Shown: positions 5,534-64,000 of the stretch, one piece after another
Layout: the number at the start of each line of letters is the position of its first letter
Position numbering within the stretch: position 1 is the first letter of the stretch
From: a virus
Lineage: Duplodnaviria; Heunggongvirae; Uroviricota; Caudoviricetes
Virus record (IMG/VR): IMGVR_UViG_3300012269_000002
Location: 18,407 to 82,406 of that record
Length of the DNA stretch: 64,000 nt
Direction: 5' to 3' (one strand)
Notes under the pieces: model-generated
What the model was told of the DNA's origin: nothing
What the model saw: the letters and a program-made list of their open reading frames with translations, nothing else
The model's database searches: none
Position numbers and translations under genes: made by a program

Positions 5534-8083
5534 ATGGCTTCAAATGATGATTTTTTAAAAAATCTAACAGCTTCGGCTAAAATACAAAAACAGTTAACTT
5601 CAAGTGTTGGTGAATATGCCAAGGCTATAGCTACTATTGGTGAAATTCAAGAAAATATTAAAATTGCGTTAGAGGGTCAAAAAGCTATTGAGGCAGATTT
5701 ATTATTATTAAGACAAGAGGAACAGGACTTAATCAATAAAATGGCTGGTGATAGTGCTAACCTAACCGAAGCTGAACGTAGAAGATTAGCAAATTTAGCG
5801 ATAATAATAAGAAATCAACAAAATATTTCTGACGAACTAGTAAAACAAACTACCTCATTAAATAGACAGAATGATGAGTATATTCAGATAATTAAAAACG
5901 TTAGTAAGGTTAATTTAGGGGTGAGTACCGTTCTTAAAAGTTTAACTAAAGTACCTGGCTTAATTAAAAAAGGTTTTGGTGCTCTAGATGATACTGGTAT
6001 TTTTAAGGTTGATAAAGAAATAAAGTTAACGTCTAGAAGTCTTAATATTTCAAAAGCTAATTCAGATGCATTTGGTCTTAGTTTAAATAAGGCTGCTAAG
6101 TCAACAAGTATGATAGGTGTTCAAACAGAAGACTTATCTAAAATGCAAAAATCATATTCAGAAGAAATAGGTAGGTCCGTAGTACTAAGTGAAGAAGGTC
6201 TAGTAGCTATGTCTAGAATGGCACAAGGTACTAACCTAGGTACCGAGGGTGCTGCTGCTATGGCAGCTGAAATGGATAAATTCAACTTATCGGTTGAGGC
6301 TTCTGCCGATTACGTTGAGGAAACGGTTAAGCTAGCCGCTAAAATGGGTGTAAATTCAGATAAAGCAATTAAAAATTTACAAACAAATCTTAAATTAGCT
6401 CAAAAATTTAATTTTAAAGGTGGAGTTGCTGGAATTACCATGATGGCAAATGAGGCCGCTAGGCTTCGTTTAGACATGGATGGGATATCTGGGCTAGCTG
6501 ATAAGGTGTTTAGGCCAGAGGGTGCCGTTGAAATGGCTGCACAGCTACAAGTTATGGGTGGTGAGTTTGCAAAACTAGGTGACCCTTTCACATTAATGTT
6601 TAAAGCTAGAAATGATTTTGCTGGTTTTGCTAAGGATATTTCAAAGGCTACGGTTGAATTTGTTGACTTTAATGATGAAACTGGTGAGACAATCCTTAAG
6701 GGTGGTCTAGCGGCTGATAGAATGAGGGAGATTTCCAAGATTACGGGTATCGCCACTGATAAATTGGTTGAGATGGCTGGCGCACAAAAAAGGTTGGAGA
6801 AATTCGATTCGATTATCCCAAGTGTAATTTCAGATAAGGAAGATAGAGAAATGATTGCATCTTTAGCTACAATGAAAGATGGTAAGGCTGAAATAGTACT
6901 TTCTGGTGGTGAAAAATTTAATTTAAAGGATATTACCGATAGTACGCTAAAGTATATAAAGGCGAATGATGAAGGTTTAAAAGAAAGGGCTGAAGGTTCT
7001 AGAAGTTTTGATGAGAACATTACTGATTTTAAAAATACAATGAAATCTACATTTTTACCATTAGCTCAAACATTGGCCAAGGATATTGGCCCCAAGATAC
7101 AGGGAATGGTTGATTATTTAAGGGATAATGATTGGTTTGGTAAGATAGAGACATTTATGAAAGGTGTTGGAAGTGCCGTAACGACATTTGGTGATATATT
7201 TAGTCCAAAAGGATTATTAATTGCTGGAATAGCTACACTTATAGCTCAACCAGCTTTATGGGTTATACGTGGACTAAAATTAGCTAAAGGATTTATGAGC
7301 GGTGTTCGTGGCATGGGTGGTATTGGTGATGGAAAAACTGGAAGTAGAACTGGTTCTTCTGGTAGTGGAATGTTTAATACTAGTAGAACTGGTGCTGGTA
7401 TGTCTAAGTCGGCTAAGATGGGGATGAATTTTAAAAGTGCCAGTAAAGGTATTGGTAGTAGGCTTGGTGGACTTACCGCTGCTGGATTTTCTGGTTATGA
7501 TGAGTGGTCTGAAAATAGTGAAAACGGTATGGGAGATGGTGAAAATGCCACTAGAACTGCCGCTAGAGCTGGTGGTGCTGGTTTAGGTGCCTGGGGTGGT
7601 GCCGCTGCTGGTGCTGCTATCGGTAGTGTTGTTCCAGTAATTGGTACAATTATTGGTGGAATTATAGGTGGTATAGCTGGTGGTGCTTTAGGTGATTATG
7701 TTGGTGATAAAGCTGGTGATATAGGTTTCGGTAGTAGTGGTAAACCAATAAAAAGTGTTGATGATGGTATCATAAGTTTTAACCCTAACGATAAATTTAT
7801 GTCGGTTGGTAGTGATGCCATGATTGCTGGAACTAACGTAAACGGAAATAAAAAACTAGCTGAAACGATATCAACTGGTGGTTCTGGTGGCTCAAGTGAG
7901 GTTAAACATAAATTTGATGATTTAAATATTAATATTTCATTGAATAGTGACACTGCATGGTTAAATAGAATCGGTTCGGATATCGCTAACGATAGGACTT
8001 TTGTTAGGGAATTAACTATTAAAATACAAGAAGAAATTAGAATGGCAATAGGTGGTGGAAAACTAAATCCTAACCCAATATAA
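5534..8083 (+). CDS. Tail tape measure protein
   Basis: 849 aa, helical and Ala/Gly-rich, N-terminal coiled coil, glycine-zipper segment (GGAGLGAWGGAAAGAAIG...GGIIGGIAGGALG); lies after the chaperones and before baseplate genes. Confidence 0.85.
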   Translation: MASNDDFLKNLTASAKIQKQLTSSVGEYAKAIATIGEIQENIKIALEGQKAIEADLLLLRQEEQDLINKMAGDSANLTEAERRRLANLAIIIRNQQNISDELVKQTTSLNRQNDEYIQIIKNVSKVNLGVSTVLKSLTKVPGLIKKGFGALDDTGIFKVDKEIKLTSRSLNISKANSDAFGLSLNKAAKSTSMIGVQTEDLSKMQKSYSEEIGRSVVLSEEGLVAMSRMAQGTNLGTEGAAAMAAEMDKFNLSVEASADYVEETVKLAAKMGVNSDKAIKNLQTNLKLAQKFNFKGGVAGITMMANEAARLRLDMDGISGLADKVFRPEGAVEMAAQLQVMGGEFAKLGDPFTLMFKARNDFAGFAKDISKATVEFVDFNDETGETILKGGLAADRMREISKITGIATDKLVEMAGAQKRLEKFDSIIPSVISDKEDREMIASLATMKDGKAEIVLSGGEKFNLKDITDSTLKYIKANDEGLKERAEGSRSFDENITDFKNTMKSTFLPLAQTLAKDIGPKIQGMVDYLRDNDWFGKIETFMKGVGSAVTTFGDIFSPKGLLIAGIATLIAQPALWVIRGLKLAKGFMSGVRGMGGIGDGKTGSRTGSSGSGMFNTSRTGAGMSKSAKMGMNFKSASKGIGSRLGGLTAAGFSGYDEWSENSENGMGDGENATRTAARAGGAGLGAWGGAAAGAAIGSVVPVIGTIIGGIIGGIAGGALGDYVGDKAGDIGFGSSGKPIKSVDDGIISFNPNDKFMSVGSDAMIAGTNVNGNKKLAETISTGGSGGSSEVKHKFDDLNINISLNSDTAWLNRIGSDIANDRTFVRELTIKIQEEIRMAIGGGKLNPNPI

Positions 8084-17746: not shown

Positions 17747-17777
17747 TTGTTTATTAAAAATAATTTAACTATATTTG
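17747..17777 (+). promoter_or_regulatory. Bacteroidota-type promoter
   Basis: TTG 17747-17749, 20 nt, TATATTTG 17770-17777, ATG 17782. Confidence 0.7.
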
Positions 17778-55280: not shown

Positions 55281-57446
55281 ATGAGTTATATAATAAATAA
55301 TACAAGTGCTTTTGTTAATATAAAATTAACTGAAATTGGTAGACAAAAAATAGCACAAGGTCAATTGACCTTTAATTCTTGGGCTATAGGTGATTCTGAA
55401 ATAAATTATGACAGAGAGGTAAACCATGATAATTTCCCAATGGACGTAAGTTTATCGGGTTCAAGTAAGGTTTTACGCCCGTTTGATAATCAACCTAATC
55501 TTAAATACTTCATAACTTCACAAAATACTAGTGAAGGTGGATTAAATGTTTTAAATACTTCACAAATCAATACAATAAAAGCTATTGTTAACAATAAAGC
55601 CGAAGATAGAGGTTTCTTTGAAAAAGTGGGGTCTGATTATGTAACGTATAGTGGTGACACTTACATAAAGGGGGGCGGTATTATACCTGGACCCAATATG
55701 GACGGTTCAAATATCTTGGTTATTGGCACTGGTTACACGGTTGGTGATGTAATATTGGTTAAGGTATCCAATGACACCGTTGGTACACTACCTTTAAATC
55801 AAAATACAACACCAGTACCAAACCTATGGTATAAAATACAATCATTAACGACCACAAACGATGTTAATGATACGGCAATTTTAGATAGGAATCTACCAAA
55901 CACTAATTCTAGTATTTCCGACTCACAATTTATAGTTTATACTGGTGGTGAAGTTTATGGTAATTTCGGTTTTGAGGAAACCACACCATACTGGAACAGT
56001 AATACATTATCATTTGCTGGGTCAAGTGAAATATCATCTGGTGATGTTGCAGTTTGGAATATGAATAATGTGTGGTGCGAAAACTTAGTAGGTATGACAG
56101 GTACTAGTGTTAATAATTCGGTATCAACACCTAATGAGAATTTTAGTAAATTTGGTTCTAATGGTTTTTTAGGTCAAAAGTATCCATATTTAGGATATTC
56201 ATGTAATGAAAATAGTGGGGCTAATAGTGGTGTATTAGATGAATGTAATTCACTTGGACAGTCGGTAAAAGATAGGACTAAAAAATCAATATCAATATTA
56301 CATTACACAAATAACACTATATCCAACTTTTATGGTGAGTATCTATTCATTGACGGTGATAAAAATAAAAATTTAATATTACGTCTTCCAGATATTATGT
56401 ATCATAGAAGAGATTTTACAAGTGAAAATGGTACATTAATGGGAATGGATTTTATAGCTAGTGGGGATACTAAATTTATAGATAATTCAGATATCAAATA
56501 TATTGAATTAGTTGAATATGGAACTTTGGTTAGTGGAACCCCTAGAGTTGTAGGTAAAGTATTCCCACAATTAAAGACCGTTATTTTCGATGATGATGAA
56601 ATTATTGCGGCAATGTCCTATAAATCAAATAGAAATTGGACATTACCATCATTAAGTGCCAACCTAATAACCTCAAATTTGGGGTCTGGTTCAGGTGTTT
56701 TAGCTGCTAAAAAAACAATGTATATTACATATAGTTTCGAGAACTCCACAACCAACGGTTTAGGTACGACACTACCATGTCAATCATACGCTAAAATATA
56801 CAACTCAACGTCTAGTAGTAAAGATGTTCAATTTAAATTGAACGATATCGATTTGCTACCTTACATGAGAAAAGAAGAAAAAGTTGGGTATGATGGTCTT
56901 GGTTTCTCAGCAAGGGAGTTCAAGGTATTATATCAAATAGTTGATGATGTAACGGATAGACCAAAATCAGATGCTTGGAAAGTTTACGATTACACCAATA
57001 CAAATATAACCGATGCGGTCGGTGAAACTATAGACCCAATTAAATTAGAAAATCAAAACCCAACGGTAAACGGATTCTTAATTGATAGTGTGGTTGATAC
57101 TTCAGCCACTATATTCAGCATTATGACATCTTTAAACATGCCAGCGAATACAACACCAGAAGTTTTACAATTTGGTGATGAACGATTTTTCTACGGTAAT
57201 TTGGAAACATATATTGGTGCAACGATTTATAAATCTATATTCAATATAGATATTTCTGCCGATGACTTTAAAACCACTGGTAACCCAAGTAGGTCCAATG
57301 CTGCGGTTAATCCACCAGATATTAGAGTTACCGAAGTAGGTATATATGATAATACTGGTGATTTAGTTATGATTGGTAAATTAAGTAAACCAGTAAAATT
57401 AACATCTGGAAATACTATCATGGTTGAGTTAAGTATCGACTTTTAA
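55281..57446 (+). CDS. Baseplate/fibre-attachment protein (gpH N-terminal-like)
   Basis: IKLTEIGRQKIAQG...WAIGDSEINY; C-terminal VTEVGIYDNTGDLVMIGKLSKPV. Confidence 0.65.
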   Translation: MSYIINNTSAFVNIKLTEIGRQKIAQGQLTFNSWAIGDSEINYDREVNHDNFPMDVSLSGSSKVLRPFDNQPNLKYFITSQNTSEGGLNVLNTSQINTIKAIVNNKAEDRGFFEKVGSDYVTYSGDTYIKGGGIIPGPNMDGSNILVIGTGYTVGDVILVKVSNDTVGTLPLNQNTTPVPNLWYKIQSLTTTNDVNDTAILDRNLPNTNSSISDSQFIVYTGGEVYGNFGFEETTPYWNSNTLSFAGSSEISSGDVAVWNMNNVWCENLVGMTGTSVNNSVSTPNENFSKFGSNGFLGQKYPYLGYSCNENSGANSGVLDECNSLGQSVKDRTKKSISILHYTNNTISNFYGEYLFIDGDKNKNLILRLPDIMYHRRDFTSENGTLMGMDFIASGDTKFIDNSDIKYIELVEYGTLVSGTPRVVGKVFPQLKTVIFDDDEIIAAMSYKSNRNWTLPSLSANLITSNLGSGSGVLAAKKTMYITYSFENSTTNGLGTTLPCQSYAKIYNSTSSSKDVQFKLNDIDLLPYMRKEEKVGYDGLGFSAREFKVLYQIVDDVTDRPKSDAWKVYDYTNTNITDAVGETIDPIKLENQNPTVNGFLIDSVVDTSATIFSIMTSLNMPANTTPEVLQFGDERFFYGNLETYIGATIYKSIFNIDISADDFKTTGNPSRSNAAVNPPDIRVTEVGIYDNTGDLVMIGKLSKPVKLTSGNTIMVELSIDF

Positions 57447-57498
57447 TAGTATATAAGAATAATATAAATAATGATTGAACTAAGAATATACTTTTAAT

Positions 57499-58701
57499 AT
57501 GGGATTTTTAAATAACACACCTTCGATAGAATTAAAAGCCAAACTTACCCCAAAAGGTAGAATAGGTTTAATAACAAATGATAATAATCTTATCACCTCA
57601 TTTAGTTTGGGGGATTCGGATAGTTATTATTCTGTTTTTTCTGGCCTAACTGGTGGACAAGTTCCACAGATATCTGGTAACTATTATGGTGCCGACACCA
57701 ATAATGGTGGAATCGATTACGTATTAAAAAGTGTACTAAAGTTTAATTCGACTACACTTAGAAAACCAATTGAAACGCAATCAATAAATGTTTCTTCATT
57801 CCCTCAATCACTTGGGTATAACGATTTATATTTTTCCGCTGGAACTTTTTCACAACAAATTGTGGATTTAAAAGACCTAAATAGTGATTCATTAGTTAAT
57901 TTATTCTATTCATTTAACTTACCGATAAGTGATTCTGATTTTATGAGATTTACTGGTACTACATTCCAAAATGGTGGATTTTCAAATACCGCATTAGGTG
58001 GACTAGCTACCGATAAGATATTGGTAATAGGTATCGATGGTAGTGAGTATAGTGAATTAATCGATGGTAAAAGTATTAAGTTATCGTTGGAGACCAGTAT
58101 TCAACCATATGAAGTTTATTCAACTTACGAAAGAAAAGGTATCTCATTAACCAACGAAGATTCAGCTGTAACCGATTCATCGACCAATGTTGCCAATTTT
58201 GGACCTAACAGGGTTTTATTATTCAGTGATGATGTAAAAAGACCTAACGGTAACCCATTATTAAGTTGGGCCACTGGATATGCACAAAATAAACCATTTA
58301 GTGTTAACGGTAAACAATTATTTAATTATAGGGGTAACGTCAACACGAGCACAACCCCAGATGAGGCAATAGGTATCGCATATTTGGATAAGGGCTTTAT
58401 TGTTATTACCCACCCAGACATTGTAGATAACTTCGTATTAACTGGGTCAACCTCTAGTGCAACTACAATTAGTTTCAATACTATTAGAAACAGAGTATCA
58501 CAATCAATTACCTGTATTGCCAATAGGGGTGAATTCGGTGTATCGACAAACCCTACCTGGGCTACTTCGGATGTACCTAGAATTACCGAGATAGGTCTTT
58601 ACGATTCCAACAATACTTTAATTGCCATTGGTAAATTAAATCGAACATATGATAAGCCTGTGGATGATTTTGTTGCTTTTAATATAACTATTGATTATTA
58701 A
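57499..58701 (+). CDS. Paralog of preceding baseplate/fibre-attachment protein
   Basis: AKLTPKGR...FSLGDSD; C-terminal ITEIGLYDSNNTLIAIGKL. Confidence 0.65.
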   Translation: MGFLNNTPSIELKAKLTPKGRIGLITNDNNLITSFSLGDSDSYYSVFSGLTGGQVPQISGNYYGADTNNGGIDYVLKSVLKFNSTTLRKPIETQSINVSSFPQSLGYNDLYFSAGTFSQQIVDLKDLNSDSLVNLFYSFNLPISDSDFMRFTGTTFQNGGFSNTALGGLATDKILVIGIDGSEYSELIDGKSIKLSLETSIQPYEVYSTYERKGISLTNEDSAVTDSSTNVANFGPNRVLLFSDDVKRPNGNPLLSWATGYAQNKPFSVNGKQLFNYRGNVNTSTTPDEAIGIAYLDKGFIVITHPDIVDNFVLTGSTSSATTISFNTIRNRVSQSITCIANRGEFGVSTNPTWATSDVPRITEIGLYDSNNTLIAIGKLNRTYDKPVDDFVAFNITIDY

Positions 58702-58755
58702 TCCTTTACTATTTATAAAAATTGTTTTATTATTATATTAAATTATAAATAAGCT

Positions 58756-59406
58756 ATGGAAGATAATAAAAATAACCTAATATTAGGCCTGGATGTTTCA
58801 ACAAAAACGATTGGAATTGCTTTGTTCGAGGATTTAGGTAAGAGTGGTAAATTAAAATTACTTCACCATGTTACACCTAACGTAAAACCAAAACCAGAGA
58901 GTAATATTCAAATGTTATTTGAAAAGGCTAGAATATTCGATGAAGAATTTTTAAATAAATATAGTAATGTAGGTATAACTAAAGTTATAATCGAAGAGCC
59001 TCTTTTACGTTCAAATAACGTAAACACCGTAGCAACCTTACTTAGATTCAATGGTATGATTGCCAGGGCAATATATGATACACTTGATATTGTTCCAGAA
59101 TTTATTTCATCTTACGATGCTAGAAAATTCGGTATACCCGAATTAATGGGCATTAGAAAATTTAATAAAAAGGGTGAACCATATAGTGAAAAAGAAATCT
59201 CCAAGAAAGAACCAGTATTATTTGGCGGTTATGATTGGGAAGTCGATAAAAAAATGGTCGTTTGGGAAAAAGTTGCGGATTTAGAACCACAAATCACTTG
59301 GTTACATACAAGAACAAAAACCTTAAAAAAGGAAAATTTTGACATGAGTGATGCTTATATCACAGTTATAGGCTATATGAATAAAATTGGTGTGTGGGTT
59401 AAATAA
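58756..59406 (+). CDS. RuvC-like Holliday junction resolvase
   Basis: ILGLDVST..IG, VIIEEP, C-terminal DMSDAY (RNase H-fold acidic residues). Confidence 0.8.
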   Translation: MEDNKNNLILGLDVSTKTIGIALFEDLGKSGKLKLLHHVTPNVKPKPESNIQMLFEKARIFDEEFLNKYSNVGITKVIIEEPLLRSNNVNTVATLLRFNGMIARAIYDTLDIVPEFISSYDARKFGIPELMGIRKFNKKGEPYSEKEISKKEPVLFGGYDWEVDKKMVVWEKVADLEPQITWLHTRTKTLKKENFDMSDAYITVIGYMNKIGVWVK

Positions 59407-59480
59407 TAACACACATATATAAATCTTTTCTCACCTAAATCGGTATTTTACCCACTTTCTATATATTTATAAATAAAGTT

Positions 59481-60266
59481 ATGGGGGATAAAATAGTTAG
59501 AAAGTTATCTAAAACACCATTATGTGGTGTGTATCAGATAGAAAACACAATTAATAATAAAAAATATATTGGCCAATCAATTGATATAGAGAGGCGATGG
59601 AATCAACATCGTTATGGTAAAGGTAGTATTATATTAAGAAATGCTATAAATAAACACGGTATTAATAATTTTGAGTTTACAATTCTAGAGTCTATACCAA
59701 TTGGTAATAGAGATAAAATGATTGATGAACTAACCTTAATTGAAGAAAAATGGTTATCTAAGGAGAAACCTTTTCTAAGAGAAAATGGTTATAATATAAA
59801 TAAAAGCGCAAAAGTGAATATACCAATTGAAAGACCTGAAGGTTATGGTGAAATGATTAGTAAAATAAAAATTGATAATAATCATTGTGGTAAAGCTACA
59901 GTTCAATACGATTTAGAAGGTAATTTAATTAAAGTGTGGAAATCCGCTGCACAAATAGAAAGAGTATTAGGGTTTAAGGCTGAAAATATTTCAGCATGTT
60001 GTTTAAGAAAAAACAAAAGTTCTAAAGGGTTTATCTGGAGGTTTAAATGGGATTTGGTATCCAAATATGATATTATAAATTTAAAAATTAAAAAAGGTGC
60101 ATCTAAAACAATAGAACAGAAAACGTTAGATGGTAAAGTTATTAGAGTTTTTGATTCACTAACCGCAGCTTCTAATTTCACCAACATACATTATACATAT
60201 ATTAGTAAAGTTTGTACTAAAAAACAAAAAACGGCTGGCGGTTTTAAATGGTCCTACCATGAGTGA
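59481..60266 (+). CDS. GIY-YIG homing endonuclease with NUMOD1-type repeats
   Basis: GVYQI.N..NNKKYIGQS..I.RRW.QH...F.FTILE...E..W...GYN; two QYDL.G..IK.W/F.S...A units. Confidence 0.9.
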   Translation: MGDKIVRKLSKTPLCGVYQIENTINNKKYIGQSIDIERRWNQHRYGKGSIILRNAINKHGINNFEFTILESIPIGNRDKMIDELTLIEEKWLSKEKPFLRENGYNINKSAKVNIPIERPEGYGEMISKIKIDNNHCGKATVQYDLEGNLIKVWKSAAQIERVLGFKAENISACCLRKNKSSKGFIWRFKWDLVSKYDIINLKIKKGASKTIEQKTLDGKVIRVFDSLTAASNFTNIHYTYISKVCTKKQKTAGGFKWSYHE

Positions 60267-60324
60267 TAGTTACTTATGTGTTATTGGTTATATACAAAAA
60301 AATGGTTATTGGCCTATAAACTAA
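60259..60324 (+). pseudogene. Relic 3' end of the ruvC-like gene
   Basis: MSDSYLCVIGYIQKNGYWPIN* vs resolvase C-terminus MSDAYITVIGYMNKIGVWVK* (11/20 identical); CATGAGTGAT shared exactly. Confidence 0.75.
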
Positions 60325-60331
60325 GTTCCTA

Positions 60332-60362
60332 TTGCAAATATGGATTAATTTTCATATATTTG
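60332..60362 (+). promoter_or_regulatory. Bacteroidota-type promoter in front of the primase relic
   Basis: TTG 60332-34, 20 nt, TATATTTG 60355-62. Confidence 0.7.
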
Positions 60363-60366
60363 CAAT

Positions 60367-60450
60367 ATGGACAATATTTTAATTAATTTATTTAGGGGAT
60401 TTTTAGGTGAATGCCACAGTCACAATGATGACAGTGGTCAATATTCATTT
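60367..60450 (+). pseudogene. Relic 5' end of the primase gene
   Basis: MDNILINLFRGFLGECHSHNDDSGQYSF vs primase MDNIILNIFRSFLGEPHEHNEESGQTSW (18/28 identical). Confidence 0.85.
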
Positions 60451-61293
60451 ATTAACCACATTCCAAATTGTTGATTTACTAATATTAAATAAATCAGCTA
60501 ATTTTCTGGTTGAATAATAACCAGTTTTATATAGATTTATAATTTCTTTTTTAATTGTATCAGTTAATTTAGTTTTTTCATTTGAAGAAAAATACACCCA
60601 CTTAAACCCAATACATATTTTAGTTCTACCATTACAAACTGAACTAATTCTAGATGGGTCGATATTATAATTATTAGCTGCATCAGTTAAACTATCCCAT
60701 AGTTTAATTGTATTACCATCAGTATCTAACTGGTAAACTTTTCTTTTATTTAACGCTGGTTTACCTTTTTTTATGTTGGATAATTTATTTTTAGTTTCAC
60801 TTGAATGACCAACCCCAGTTTTAGTTTTTATAAGTTTAATTATAGTTTCACTATAATGTTTTTCACCAGTATGTGAAATGGACATCATTTTTTTAGTTTC
60901 ATCAGAATGTTTATTACCTAAGTTATATTTATTACCCTTATGAATTTTAGATAATTTCATTTTTGTTTCGTCTGAATGCTTAAAACCTAACATGTTATTA
61001 GCAAAGCCACATATATTATATGTTTTATCTTTATCAAATGGTTTCATAACATCTAAATGATATTGTTCACGTATTAATAGGTCGGTAACATTTTCAATAA
61101 TTTCGATTATATTAAACTCAAAATTATTTTCACCATATTTGTTCCAAGATTTTTGCAAATAATCATTATCATGAATACCCTTTCTAAGTGTACGTTTATG
61201 GTCATACCATCTTTTAGTTATATTAATTGAACTACCAATATAAAATTTACCGTTTTTTATATTTATTATCCTATATATACCTATTTTATTCAT
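60445..61293 (-). CDS. GIY-YIG homing endonuclease (NUMOD3, NUMOD1, C-terminal HTH)
   Basis: GIYRIIN...KFYIGSS..I.KRW..H...LQ.SWNKYG..NF.F.I.E...EQ..LD...YN; HSDETK repeats; STRKLADLFNISKSTIWNVV. Confidence 0.9.
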   Translation of the reverse strand: MNKIGIYRIINIKNGKFYIGSSINITKRWYDHKRTLRKGIHDNDYLQKSWNKYGENNFEFNIIEIIENVTDLLIREQYHLDVMKPFDKDKTYNICGFANNMLGFKHSDETKMKLSKIHKGNKYNLGNKHSDETKKMMSISHTGEKHYSETIIKLIKTKTGVGHSSETKNKLSNIKKGKPALNKRKVYQLDTDGNTIKLWDSLTDAANNYNIDPSRISSVCNGRTKICIGFKWVYFSSNEKTKLTDTIKKEIINLYKTGYYSTRKLADLFNISKSTIWNVVNK

Positions 61294-61438
61294 TTTCTTT
61301 TATATGTGTTTCTAACAACTCCCCAATTAATTTAGATTTATTATTTGTGATTTTATTTAACTGGTCATTTAAGTCTTTATCCAAAGTTATACTAACTTTT
61401 ATTTTCTTATCACTTTCATTTAATTTTGGTCTTCCCAT
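61286..61438 (-). CDS. 50-aa ribbon-helix-helix-like DNA-binding protein (not in ORF track)
   Basis: MGRPKLNESDKKIKVSITLDKDLNDQLNKITNNKSKLIGELLETHIKENE*. Its end overlaps the endonuclease ATG, and TATTTAT lies upstream (61460-61454). Confidence 0.7.
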   Translation of the reverse strand: MGRPKLNESDKKIKVSITLDKDLNDQLNKITNNKSKLIGELLETHIKENE

Positions 61439-61526
61439 ATTATATCTTTATTAATAAATATCTATAAAAATAATAAAAATAGCTTTTTTATAGCATTTTT
61501 AAAAAAAAAGTTATATATTTGTAAAC

Positions 61527-62489
61527 ATGGATAATATCATACTTAACATATTTAGAAGTTTTTTAGGGGAGCCACATGAACACAATGAAGAAAGTGGTCA
61601 AACAAGTTGGGATTGTCCAGCTTGTGCTGAGGATAAGGGACTTCCTATGGGTCAAGGTGATGGTAGACATAAATTAGCGATTAATTATAAACGTGGTATA
61701 TTTAAGTGTTGGGTTTGTAACTACCAAAACAACATGTACGGTAAAATACCTAAATTAATCAAACGATACGGTAATAAAAAAATACTAAAGGATTATTTAT
61801 TACTTAAACCAGAGAATGATTATCAACCGAACCTAAATGATATACAAGCAACGGTTGTACATTTACCCGATGGCTTTAAAAAACTTAGTGAGTGCACTGG
61901 TAGTGAGTATAAATATTCACACGCATATTATTATCTAATAGATAGAGGATTTACTGATGAAATAATTAAAGAATTTAATATAGGTTTTACTACTTATGGT
62001 AAATTTAGGAACAGGGTCATAATCCCATCATACGATGAGGTAGGTGATTTAAATTATTTCGTTGGTAGGGCTTGGGACGATTTCAATAAACCAAAATATA
62101 ATAACCCAGATGCTGAAAAACAAGCGATTATCTTTAATGAGGATAAGATTAATTGGGATTCTACAATATATTTGGTAGAAGGAGCCTTTGACCATATAGT
62201 AATTCCAAACTCAATACCTATACTGGGTAAAAATTTAAGTGTTAGAGTTAAACAAATGATATTAACCAAGTCCAGAGCGGATATTGTAATATTATTAGAT
62301 GAGGATGCCTACGATGATGCTATTAGAATTTATAAAGAACTTAATGTTGGTGATTTATATAATAAGATTAAGTTATGTACTCCACCGTATAAAGAAGACC
62401 CAGCTTCTATTTTTAAAAATGAAGGTAGGTCTGGTATTATAAAATTATTAAAAACTTCTAAAAGGGTTCCAGAAATTGAGTTATATTAA
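61527..62489 (+). CDS. DNA primase (zinc finger + TOPRIM)
   Basis: CPAC...CWVC, YL..RG, R..IP, YLVEGAFD, LLDEDA; TATATTTG promoter at 61514-61521. Confidence 0.9.
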   Translation: MDNIILNIFRSFLGEPHEHNEESGQTSWDCPACAEDKGLPMGQGDGRHKLAINYKRGIFKCWVCNYQNNMYGKIPKLIKRYGNKKILKDYLLLKPENDYQPNLNDIQATVVHLPDGFKKLSECTGSEYKYSHAYYYLIDRGFTDEIIKEFNIGFTTYGKFRNRVIIPSYDEVGDLNYFVGRAWDDFNKPKYNNPDAEKQAIIFNEDKINWDSTIYLVEGAFDHIVIPNSIPILGKNLSVRVKQMILTKSRADIVILLDEDAYDDAIRIYKELNVGDLYNKIKLCTPPYKEDPASIFKNEGRSGIIKLLKTSKRVPEIELY

Positions 62490-63061
62490 AAATCGTCATC
62501 GTAACCAAAATCAAAATCATCATCAGGTAAGCCGATTAAATCTTCTTCACTATCACTACTTAAGAAAGGTGTTTTACTTATAATTTTAGCCCCTAAACCT
62601 CTATTTTTTAAAGTTATTTCTTTTTCATTCGGAAATTCCATTCTATTTCTTATTGTGGCATCTACATCTATTAAGTTCTTGGGTGATTTAACTATAAGTA
62701 GAACAGGTTCACCACCACCAACATGACTTTTCTGACTGTGACTAGATGATAAATCTTTATCACTTAAAACATAGTGTGAACCTATATGTTTTGTATCAAT
62801 ACTTTCTATACTACTAACAAATACTACTCTATATAAAGTAATAGTTTGAGGTAATTTATTAAGTATATATAAAATATTTTCCAATGCCCTTTTTGCTAAG
62901 TTTGGGTTACTAAATGAAGTCTTAAGACCCAATTTTATATATTCATTTCTTAAATCATTTGTGATAGCATCTTCATTTAGAGTATATTCATCCTTTGTAG
63001 CATCTGAAACGTGATGATATTCTAAATCTTCCCTTAACCTTTGTTTTATATAATTTTTCAT
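62486..63061 (-). CDS. Hypothetical protein, possible ADP-ribosyltransferase fold
   Basis: ITLYRV...GSHYVLS...FPNEKEITL; preceded by TATTTATA on the minus strand (63083-63076). Confidence 0.45.
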   Translation of the reverse strand: MKNYIKQRLREDLEYHHVSDATKDEYTLNEDAITNDLRNEYIKLGLKTSFSNPNLAKRALENILYILNKLPQTITLYRVVFVSSIESIDTKHIGSHYVLSDKDLSSSHSQKSHVGGGEPVLLIVKSPKNLIDVDATIRNRMEFPNEKEITLKNRGLGAKIISKTPFLSSDSEEDLIGLPDDDFDFGYDDDF

Positions 63062-63084: not shown

Positions 63085-63115
63085 TTGATATAATAGATAA
63101 AAATTAGTATATTTG
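63085..63115 (+). promoter_or_regulatory. Bacteroidota-type promoter
   Basis: TTG 63085-87, 20 nt, TATATTTG 63108-15. Confidence 0.7.
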
Positions 63116-63132
63116 CCTAAATACGTATAATT

Positions 63133-63690
63133 ATGTTGGATTTTTATTTATTAGATTTGCTAGGTAATGCCGATAATGGAAAATGGTCCGTTATCGAAAA
63201 TAGGTTGATTAGACTGGATAATCAGGATAAAGAGTTATATTTTTATGAAATCACCAACACACACCACACATCCTTTATACAGGATACCGCAAACTATATT
63301 TTAGACTTAACAACGTTTAAGTTAATTGATAATGGTATTAAAGTGCCATTGAATATAATATTCAGATATAAGTTATATGATAAGATTATTACAGTGTTCG
63401 ATGAATTTAATGATGAAAAAGAGGTAGATAATCGCCCAAATTATTTGTCTTATACTACTACCAAACGTAAACCAAATTGTAATACTAGCTCACCTGTTGA
63501 TATAGGTCAAAGTTATAAAGAAAGATATAGTGGAAGGTATATTTGGCCCTCACGTAGTACAAATGAGGTGGATAATTCGTTGACAATTAAAAAAGAAATG
63601 AATTTTAATAAATCAATCCCACAACATAAGATTAATAGAATATTACAATTAATTAGTAAGAATGAAAAACGAACCAAATACCAACTATAA
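63133..63690 (+). CDS. Hypothetical protein
   Basis: 185-aa ORF with its own promoter. Confidence 0.6.
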   Translation: MLDFYLLDLLGNADNGKWSVIENRLIRLDNQDKELYFYEITNTHHTSFIQDTANYILDLTTFKLIDNGIKVPLNIIFRYKLYDKIITVFDEFNDEKEVDNRPNYLSYTTTKRKPNCNTSSPVDIGQSYKERYSGRYIWPSRSTNEVDNSLTIKKEMNFNKSIPQHKINRILQLISKNEKRTKYQL

Positions 63691-64000
63691 AGCCGAGTTA
63701 TTAAAGATAGGTGAGGAAATAAGAAATATAATTACCGAAAAACAAAAAGAACTTGAATTAACGTTTGTTGAAGATACCCACACTTATCATATTAGAACAA
63801 AAGAGGGTGACATGACAACTAAATTTCCATCGGTATCAACTGTTATTAAACAATTCTACAATGAGTTTCCAGCACTTGAAAAATCATTCGATATGTGTAA
63901 TGGTGATATATTTGAACAAGACAAACTGTTAACCGAATGGAGGGGTACAGCGGATTATGCTAATTCTAAGGGGTCTAGGGTACATTATTTATTAGAAATG
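63662..64000 (+). CDS. 5' part of probable PD-(D/E)XK exonuclease (RecB/Cas4-like), truncated by window end
   Basis: MKNEPN...FVEDTHTY....FPSVSTVIKQF...W...A....GSRVHYLLEM, open to the end of the window. Confidence 0.6.
   Translation, partial: MKNEPNTNYKAELLKIGEEIRNIITEKQKELELTFVEDTHTYHIRTKEGDMTTKFPSVSTVIKQFYNEFPALEKSFDMCNGDIFEQDKLLTEWRGTADYANSKGSRVHYLLEM

Follow-up and report, generated by a model that had tools for sequence, protein, structure and literature searches.

A ruvC-primase junction probably displaced by two GIY-YIG endonuclease cassettes in a large aquatic phage

Introduction

How can a homing endonuclease gene lie inside the coding sequence (CDS) of an essential phage gene and leave that gene whole? 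The question is raised by a locus in a 64,000-nt stretch of phage DNA (hereafter the window), bases 18407-82406 of the 161-kb IMG/VR virus record IMGVR_UViG_3300012269_000002, which is estimated to be 46% complete. Here the gene of a RuvC-like resolvase (ruvC) and that of a DnaG-type primase are separated by two GIY-YIG endonuclease genes that converge on a short segment (60259-60450) with the appearance of a second ruvC end, a promoter and a second primase start. The original prediction, made from the DNA letters, took this segment for the ancestral junction of the two genes, stranded by independent homing events that replaced the 3' end of one and the 5' end of the other. After comparison with relatives, we put at about 85% the probability that 60259-60450 is the original ruvC-3' end/promoter/primase-5' end junction, displaced when free-standing GIY-YIG cassettes invaded the locus twice and independently.

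The stretch is present in public lake-water and salt-lake metagenomes. A DNA search against the GenBank phage collection returned short matches to nuclease genes only and no relative of the locus; the best primase matches in that collection, at 35% identity, are in Flavobacterium phages, the nearest isolated phages by primase. Gene starts in the window are preceded by TTG-N20-TAnnTTTG, which we take to be the Bacteroidota promoter type (-33 TTTG/-7 TAnnTTTG, housekeeping sigma factor). In promoters of this type, the boxes are ~19-21 nt apart and transcription starts a few nt 3' of the -7 box. Relatives were gathered by protein scans with the primase and RuvC, which gave 87 loci (L numbers below), 63 of them distinct.

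Results

A colinear copy of the ruvC-primase junction

The features of the locus are listed below, with "fossil" denoting the presumably displaced copies.

58756..59406, plus strand: RuvC-like resolvase gene, 216 aa (PHROG 159, E 3e-5)
59343..59352, repeated at 60258-60267, plus strand: 10-mer CATGAGTGAT (D-M-S-D codons), one copy at either edge of the presumed cassette 1
59344-59406, plus strand: 3'-terminal 21 codons of ruvC, associated with cassette 1
59481..60266, plus strand: giy1, free-standing GIY-YIG + NUMOD1 endonuclease gene, 261 aa (Pfam)
60259..60324, plus strand: fossil ruvC 3' end, 21 codons and stop, overlapping the giy1 stop codon
60325..60366, plus strand: 42-nt fossil spacer between the genes, with the orphan promoter inside
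60332-60362, plus strand: orphan promoter TTG-N20-TATATTTG, 4 nt 5' of the ATG at 60367
60367..60450, plus strand: fossil primase start of 26-28 codons, its frame open as far as 60474 in the antisense of giy2
60445..61293, minus strand: giy2, endonuclease gene with GIY-YIG, two NUMOD3, NUMOD1 and a C-terminal helix-turn-helix (HTH), 282 aa (Pfam)
61286..61438, minus strand: ribbon-helix-helix (RHH)-like gene, 50 aa, overlapping the giy2 start by 8 nt
61439..61526: divergent spacer ahead of the primase gene, holding the working -7 box
61527..62489, plus strand: DnaG-type primase gene, 320 aa (PHROG 47, E 1.5e-40; Pfam DNAG_N)
61527 to between ~61610 and 61639, plus strand: probably imported primase 5' segment, its boundary taken from a strain variant

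The segment 60259-60450 holds in colinear order a copy of the ruvC end, the spacer with its promoter and the first 26-28 primase codons, and is flanked by giy1 on one side and by the giy2 and RHH-like pair (60445-61438) on the other. Its reading as ruvC end, promoter and primase start is borne out by the relatives: 60264-60450 is colinear with the ruvC-primase junction of L010, L012, L013 and L043, all empty at this site (~69% identity over 200 nt), and the spacer length falls within the range of uninvaded relatives. Between 60367-60450 and primase codons 1-28 (61527-61610), 18/28 residues and 56/84 nt are identical, AGTGGTCAA is common to 60433 and 61593, and the working primase has a -7 box TATATTTG of its own at 61514-61521, without a TTG at -33. 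All these elements were found where the original prediction had placed them. Its fossil length of 28 codons has to be relaxed: the match itself stands, and as the last two codons (60445-60450, TCA TTT) double as the stop and last Lys codon of giy2, the fossil proper has 26 to 28 codons.

In a six-frame scan of the 64 kb for the primase N-terminus (BLOSUM62 score of at least 40), the primase (154) and the fossil (106) were the only hits. The two copies agree at 20, 23 and 13 of 28 first, second and third codon positions, respectively. Differences weighted in this way to third positions indicate that both copies diverged as working genes in separate lineages.

Two occupied and empty pairs

Two near-isogenic pairs of relatives, each with one occupied and one empty site, resolve the products of such insertions. 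L044 and L045 are 98.7% identical in the left flank, with no difference from position 6279 to primase codon 22 plus 1 nt. The L044 insert of 915 nt carries a nuclease gene and an RHH-like gene in reverse and is followed by the promoter and codons 1-26 once more, in a copy about two-thirds identical to the native one; from GCCTTTGACTGTCC (the A-F-D-C-P codons) onward the two loci show scattered differences only. The fossil of L044 matches L045 exactly, and the working primase start has diverged. Since flank and fossil agree with L045 and the second copy does not, the truncated copy stems from the recipient and the start now in use is an import.

The second pair gives the counterpart at ruvC. 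L100 and L101 encode an identical primase protein and are 100% identical up to the D-M-T-D-A-Y codons of ruvC, where L100 has a 902-nt insert consisting of a new tail, a spacer and a giy1-like gene. The insert is flanked by a 17-nt repeat of these codons, the counterpart of the window 10-mer CATGAGTGAT. After it, the native tail and downstream sequence are identical to L101 for ~600 nt, so the ruvC fossil equals L101, and the working end has diverged. In both pairs, then, what survives of the recipient's gene end is the fossil, and the end now in use is a diverged import; the predicted independent replacement of a 3' end and a 5' end, each arriving with a nuclease gene, is thereby seen directly in relatives.

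Empty, single, double and decayed states

The site is empty in 41 of the 63 distinct loci, with a ruvC-primase gap of 18-130 nt. Together with the two pairs, this amounts to a presence/absence polymorphism of the homing type for GIY-YIG genes at one site in colinear genomes. TAnnTTTG lies 2-12 nt 5' of the primase ATG in 36/63 relatives and the full -33/-7 motif precedes the primase in 33/63; at 2-12 nt it is present in most of the closer empty-site loci. A giy1-like gene stands alone in the gap in L028, L029, L033/35/36, L048-50 and L099/L100, and a giy2-like gene with its RHH-like partner stands alone in L038 and L044/L062. Thus the comparison across relatives that had been proposed recovered the empty state, both single insertions and the double one.

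Each fossil type keeps to its own cassette type. A ruvC-tail fossil beginning at or beside the D-M-x-D codons lies between the giy1-like gene and the primase in L029, L033, L048/49 and L100; it was also looked for in L028, where none was detected. In L038 and L044, a primase-start fossil with its promoter lies directly 3' of ruvC next to the giy2-like and RHH-like pair, the same architecture as in the window. The expectation that no duplicate would occur without an adjacent nuclease gene held in part. Duplicates free of an intact nuclease gene exist in L025 and L017, although L025 still keeps a C-terminal coding remnant of the nuclease gene beside a fossil ruvC start, the remainder being lost (L025:5752-5944), and it represents a decay stage. 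L017 has a ruvC-tail fossil, no intact nuclease gene and a 295-nt spacer with weak NUMOD1-like resemblance (E 0.02).

The same RHH + GIY-YIG module is also found between the tail-fibre-like gene and ruvC (L021:4949-6005, L039:4997-5987, L051:4971-5981). There it leaves 15 codons of the ruvC start as a fossil, up to the L-D-V-S-T catalytic codons; the fossil promoter points into the module, in the same direction as the nuclease genes. A further GIY-YIG gene with its own fossil lies at the ruvC 5' end in L048:2116-2890. At the ruvC-primase gap itself, L051:6630-7376 (minus strand) gives a weak HNH match and is accompanied by a longer ruvC-tail fossil (~55 codons), and L077:1761-2594 (minus strand) gives a weak LAGLIDADG match. 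Other endonuclease types thus appear to use the same hotspot.

Products of the genes involved

Sequence-only searches with the ruvC product were weak (E 0.25 for its profile against PDB sequences), so the resolvase assignment was made by fold search. Its AlphaFold model (predicted local distance difference test, pLDDT, 91.6) found the RuvC entries 7xhj and 6lw3 as the best PDB folds, with template modelling (TM) scores to the target of 0.72-0.78. The D-E-D-D tetrad (D13, E80/E81, D196 and D199) is invariant across 14 relatives, and the product of 58756..59406 is accordingly modelled as a RuvC-fold resolvase with this tetrad.

The giy1 product matches the GIY-YIG (PF01541, 4.7e-12) and NUMOD1 (5.9e-10) families of Pfam and the I-TevI catalytic domain (1mk0, E 2e-12); the equivalent of His40 is missing. 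It is 67% identical to the product of the single-insertion gene of L100. The giy2 product matches PF01541 (E 3e-11) and I-TevI (1mk0/1ln0, E 1e-12) with the Tyr, Arg, His, Glu and Asn positions aligned; its C-terminal HTH recurs in the homologues that occupy this site in L038 (48% identity) and L044 (40%). Because I-TevI-like catalytic residues are kept, both enzymes may still be active. The 50-aa RHH-like protein has 43-50% identical partners in L021, L038, L039, L044 and L051, and its gene is a conserved partner of the giy2-type endonuclease family. Its matches to CcdA (E 0.007) and, in 3/6 homologues, to RHH_1 (best E 0.016) lie below the curated cut-offs, and the matches to PHROG repressors are weak.

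The lineage of the window and a strain variant

Contigs from JGI, ENA and Logan assemblies carry an identical RHH-like protein, and all of those that span the junction hold both cassettes. A joint skipping a cassette was not seen over 58000-63000 in Logan contigs of four DNA runs, and empty variants may still exist. A strain variant from other samples (L090/L092, depth 102 in run X7) differs from the window at 7 positions in 58000-61639 (99.8% identity, both cassettes shared), none of them in 61527-61639, at 47 positions in 61640-62324 (6.9% diverged, mostly at third codon positions) and at a single position beyond 62324 up to 63123. It has 2 substitutions in giy2 and none in 60325-60450. This pattern points to a recombination boundary at primase codon 38, just beyond the start that we regard as imported.

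A protein search found closer primase relatives, L102 and L103, with an empty site. Against the primase starts of L102 and L034, the closest relatives by primase body, the fossil reaches 74-76% identity, matching the identity of the gene body, and the working start 63-64%; the working start is instead closest to L005. The direction therefore agrees with the fossil being the native copy in the lineage of the window, with a modest signal over 84 nt.

Several points weigh against the reading of 60259-60450 as the displaced original junction. No near-isogenic sibling of the window's lineage in the empty or single state was found, so that the nativeness of the fossil in this lineage is argued from analogy with the pairs and from a 9-nt difference over 84 nt. 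Of the two ruvC tails in the window, neither is clearly closer to the nearest relatives, which leaves native and imported copies indistinguishable at that end. Where the nuclease cuts, and that the imported allele resists it, are matters that we infer. Moreover, the fossil end points vary by lineage (codon 22, ~25-26 or 26-28), as would be expected either from several de novo insertions or from later small deletions.

Alternative explanations

Direct repeats flank the inserts, as they would if the junction had been duplicated in tandem by slippage or unequal crossover and nuclease genes had landed between the copies later. A local duplication would hardly leave copies that are only 67% identical in DNA with changes mostly at third positions, nor a working copy in L044 that is about one-third diverged from L045 next to a left flank of 98.7% identity and a right side with scattered differences. 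It would also have to explain why each fossil type is found only with its own nuclease family or a remnant of it, and we regard it as very improbable. Still harder to credit is that the 35-codon open reading frame (ORF) 60367-60474 encodes an independent conserved small protein, or that the arrangement is an assembly artefact. Gene callers did make a 35-aa gene of this ORF (L092:2650-2757, L095:3529-3636), whereas its conservation is limited to the primase-derived part: the frame ends after 25 codons in L044, runs into different sequence in L038 and ends differently again in the window, so the conserved peptide considered in the original prediction did not emerge. An artefact is countered by the recurrence of the arrangement in independent assemblies, including one depth-102 contig from another study.

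A different doubt concerns the present state of the cassettes, which might have formed by homing and since become frozen relics, their nucleases inactive or maintained for a different role, for instance when co-infecting phages compete. All contigs of the lineage hold both cassettes, leaving no empty target visible in the population, and decayed states exist in L025 and L017. Against this, neither nuclease ORF is truncated, both retain their catalytic residues and DNA-binding modules, and giy2 has only 2 substitutions between strain variants. Frozen relics are thus conceivable, though we lean away from them. Displacement of the original junction by two cassette invasions remains the reading that we adopt below.

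Proposed mechanism

Cassette 2 would extend from 60445 to ~61610-61639 and comprise giy2 and the RHH-like gene on the minus strand, the promoter region and the diverged primase codons 1 to ~28-37. It would lie inside the primase CDS, just 5' of the conserved F-D-C-P-x-C zinc-finger codons, and the primase stays whole because the cassette supplies its own promoter and gene start. Cassette 1 (~59343-60258) would be the mirror-image event at the D-M-x-D catalytic codons of the ruvC 3' end. The giy2 enzyme would cut a cassette-free primase allele around codons 22-28; the left break end would then pair with the donor's fossil and the right one with the donor's primase body, and repair synthesis would copy the nuclease gene, the RHH-like gene, the promoter and the diverged primase start. 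Because the copied part lies between donor fossil and donor primase body, the fossil would be the recipient's own gene start, as is seen in L044, and would act as the left homology arm in later rounds of homing. The insertion junctions adjoin the most conserved DNA near the gene ends, TTTGATTG-CC-G--TGT in the primase and AAAGAAAA-TTTGA-ATGAC-GAT in ruvC. Highly conserved DNA is typical of homing targets.

The orphan promoter

The 31-nt motif TTG-N20-TATATTTG has five full copies in the window. Besides the orphan promoter, they lie 4-28 nt before ORFs of 185-554 aa at these positions:

220-250
17747-17777
63085-63115
2738-2708, minus strand

Two of these four copies are only 4 nt before an ATG, and this spacing suggests leaderless or near-leaderless early transcripts. 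TATATTTG alone is mildly enriched in the window (20 found against 13.4 expected).

It had also been proposed that the orphan promoter transcribes antisense into the endonuclease gene and could silence it; in this case a short convergent RNA antisense to the giy2 3' end would dampen nuclease expression. The motif is intact and has the same form as the four that stand directly before real window genes, L038 and L044 have likewise preserved the fossil promoter, and the strain variant is unchanged across 60325-60450. Young insertions would show such retention in any case, and the terminator-like hairpin at 60506-60524 is weak, lies inside a conserved CDS and, with its T-run, is not kept in L044 or L038. 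We therefore consider antisense dampening doubtful. Nor would it be general for these cassettes, since the ruvC 5' fossil promoter shares the direction of the nuclease genes.

Discussion

The closest described system is the mobile ORF (mORF) of fungal mitochondria. Gene hybrids made by mORFs have been described for atp6 of Allomyces macrogynus (Paquin et al. 1994, as summarised in PMC3630166), for atp6, atp9, cox2 and nad3 of Glomus (PMC3630166) and for atp6 and cob of Endoconidiophora (PMC6279837); in these hybrids the C-terminal end of the gene is foreign, supplied by the mORF, and the native end has been displaced (PMC3630166, PMC6279837). The window resembles these systems in that an endonuclease gene, GIY-YIG here and GIY-YIG or LAGLIDADG there, lies between a working imported end and a displaced native end. 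The displaced copy likewise matches the uninvaded relative and the inserted copy has diverged, a likeness seen in L044 and L100, with a modest signal in the window. Unlike the published mORFs, which concern 3'/C-terminal ends in organelles, the window would have had the promoter and 5' end of a phage gene replaced. The whole ancestral junction would survive as one piece because a mirror-image 3' event adjoins the 5' replacement.

Free-standing GIY-YIG homing endonucleases are known from T4-type phages as the Seg proteins, with intronless homing by SegF (Belle et al. 2002, as cited in PMC8351571). The enzymes of the window share with Seg proteins and I-TevI the same catalytic domain and modular NUMOD/HTH DNA-binding tails. 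As with Seg, the genes are intergenic, their presence varies among relatives and nearby sequence is co-converted. Seg genes sit between genes and convert flanking markers, and are not known to leave a displaced gene-end copy. In contrast, the insertion point in the window is inside a CDS and a spare gene end is carried along.

Where phages exchange genetic material, nuclease genes have been reported at the boundaries (Barth et al. 2023, PMC10448857), and the switch from 99.8% to 93% identity between strains, at primase codon 38 next to the cassette, fits this pattern; displaced gene-end fossils are not described in the text of that paper, in which duplications, remnants and truncations were looked for. 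In 'moraphages', large aquatic Bacteroidota phages, CcdA/HicB-like antitoxin genes are paired with putative homing endonuclease genes (PMC12619734). The phage of the window is likewise large and aquatic, has Bacteroidota-type promoters and couples a small RHH/CcdA-like gene to a homing endonuclease gene, but its nuclease is of the GIY-YIG type instead of PacI-like, and its RHH assignment lies below the Pfam thresholds. Introns, inteins and 'fractured genes' are other ways for a homing endonuclease gene to lie inside a CDS (Dassa et al. 2009, PMC2677866). They too leave the host gene functional despite an insertion at a conserved catalytic motif; unlike introns and inteins, the cassettes would involve no RNA or protein splicing, the replacement gene end keeping the function.

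In the part of the literature that our search covered, we found no published description of phage displaced gene ends beside homing endonuclease genes, nor of the replacement of a promoter plus a 5' end. A spare gene end including its promoter would give an endonuclease gene a third route, besides introns and inteins, into an essential phage gene that stays unbroken. The locus offers a rare full series of empty, single (each type), double and decayed states, and the two pairs resolve homing products to the nucleotide; together they point to candidate target sites of two uncharacterised GIY-YIG enzymes. Fossils annotated as small genes can inflate the counts of small hypothetical proteins in phage genomes, and they mark recombination boundaries that shape phage mosaicism.

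A broader generalisation, which we offer tentatively and consider unlikely as a whole, is that the fossil is a built-in part of phage mobile elements that colonise CDSs without introns or inteins. It would be regenerated from the recipient at each homing and serve as a homology arm beside the break, the captured promoter would be reused to drive (L021/L039/L051) or oppose the nuclease operon, and this mode would be common and undescribed in large aquatic phages.

Other features of the window

Upstream of ruvC lies the following gene, and one further element precedes giy1:

57499-58701: tail-fibre-like gene, 400 aa
59468-59475: TATAAATA ahead of giy1

TATAAATA also occurs at 57463-57470 and 58744-58751; the copies ahead of ruvC and giy1 end 4-6 nt short of the ATG, and the 400-aa gene follows its copy by 28 nt, a placement that recalls T4-type late promoters. 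The motif is not enriched in the window (30 found, 29 expected).

The strain variant L090/L092 shows 13 differences from the window in the 115 nt of 56433-56547, within the gene of a 721-aa structural protein, against ~0.2% elsewhere, and this stretch is probably a second small recombination patch. At 63662-64000 an ORF runs off the end of the window. The corresponding stretch encodes 649 aa with a faint Hom_end match in L090:1577-3526 and 317 aa in the window-identical L089:2824-3777; if these genes correspond, the size difference may reflect a putative intein or endonuclease insertion polymorphism.

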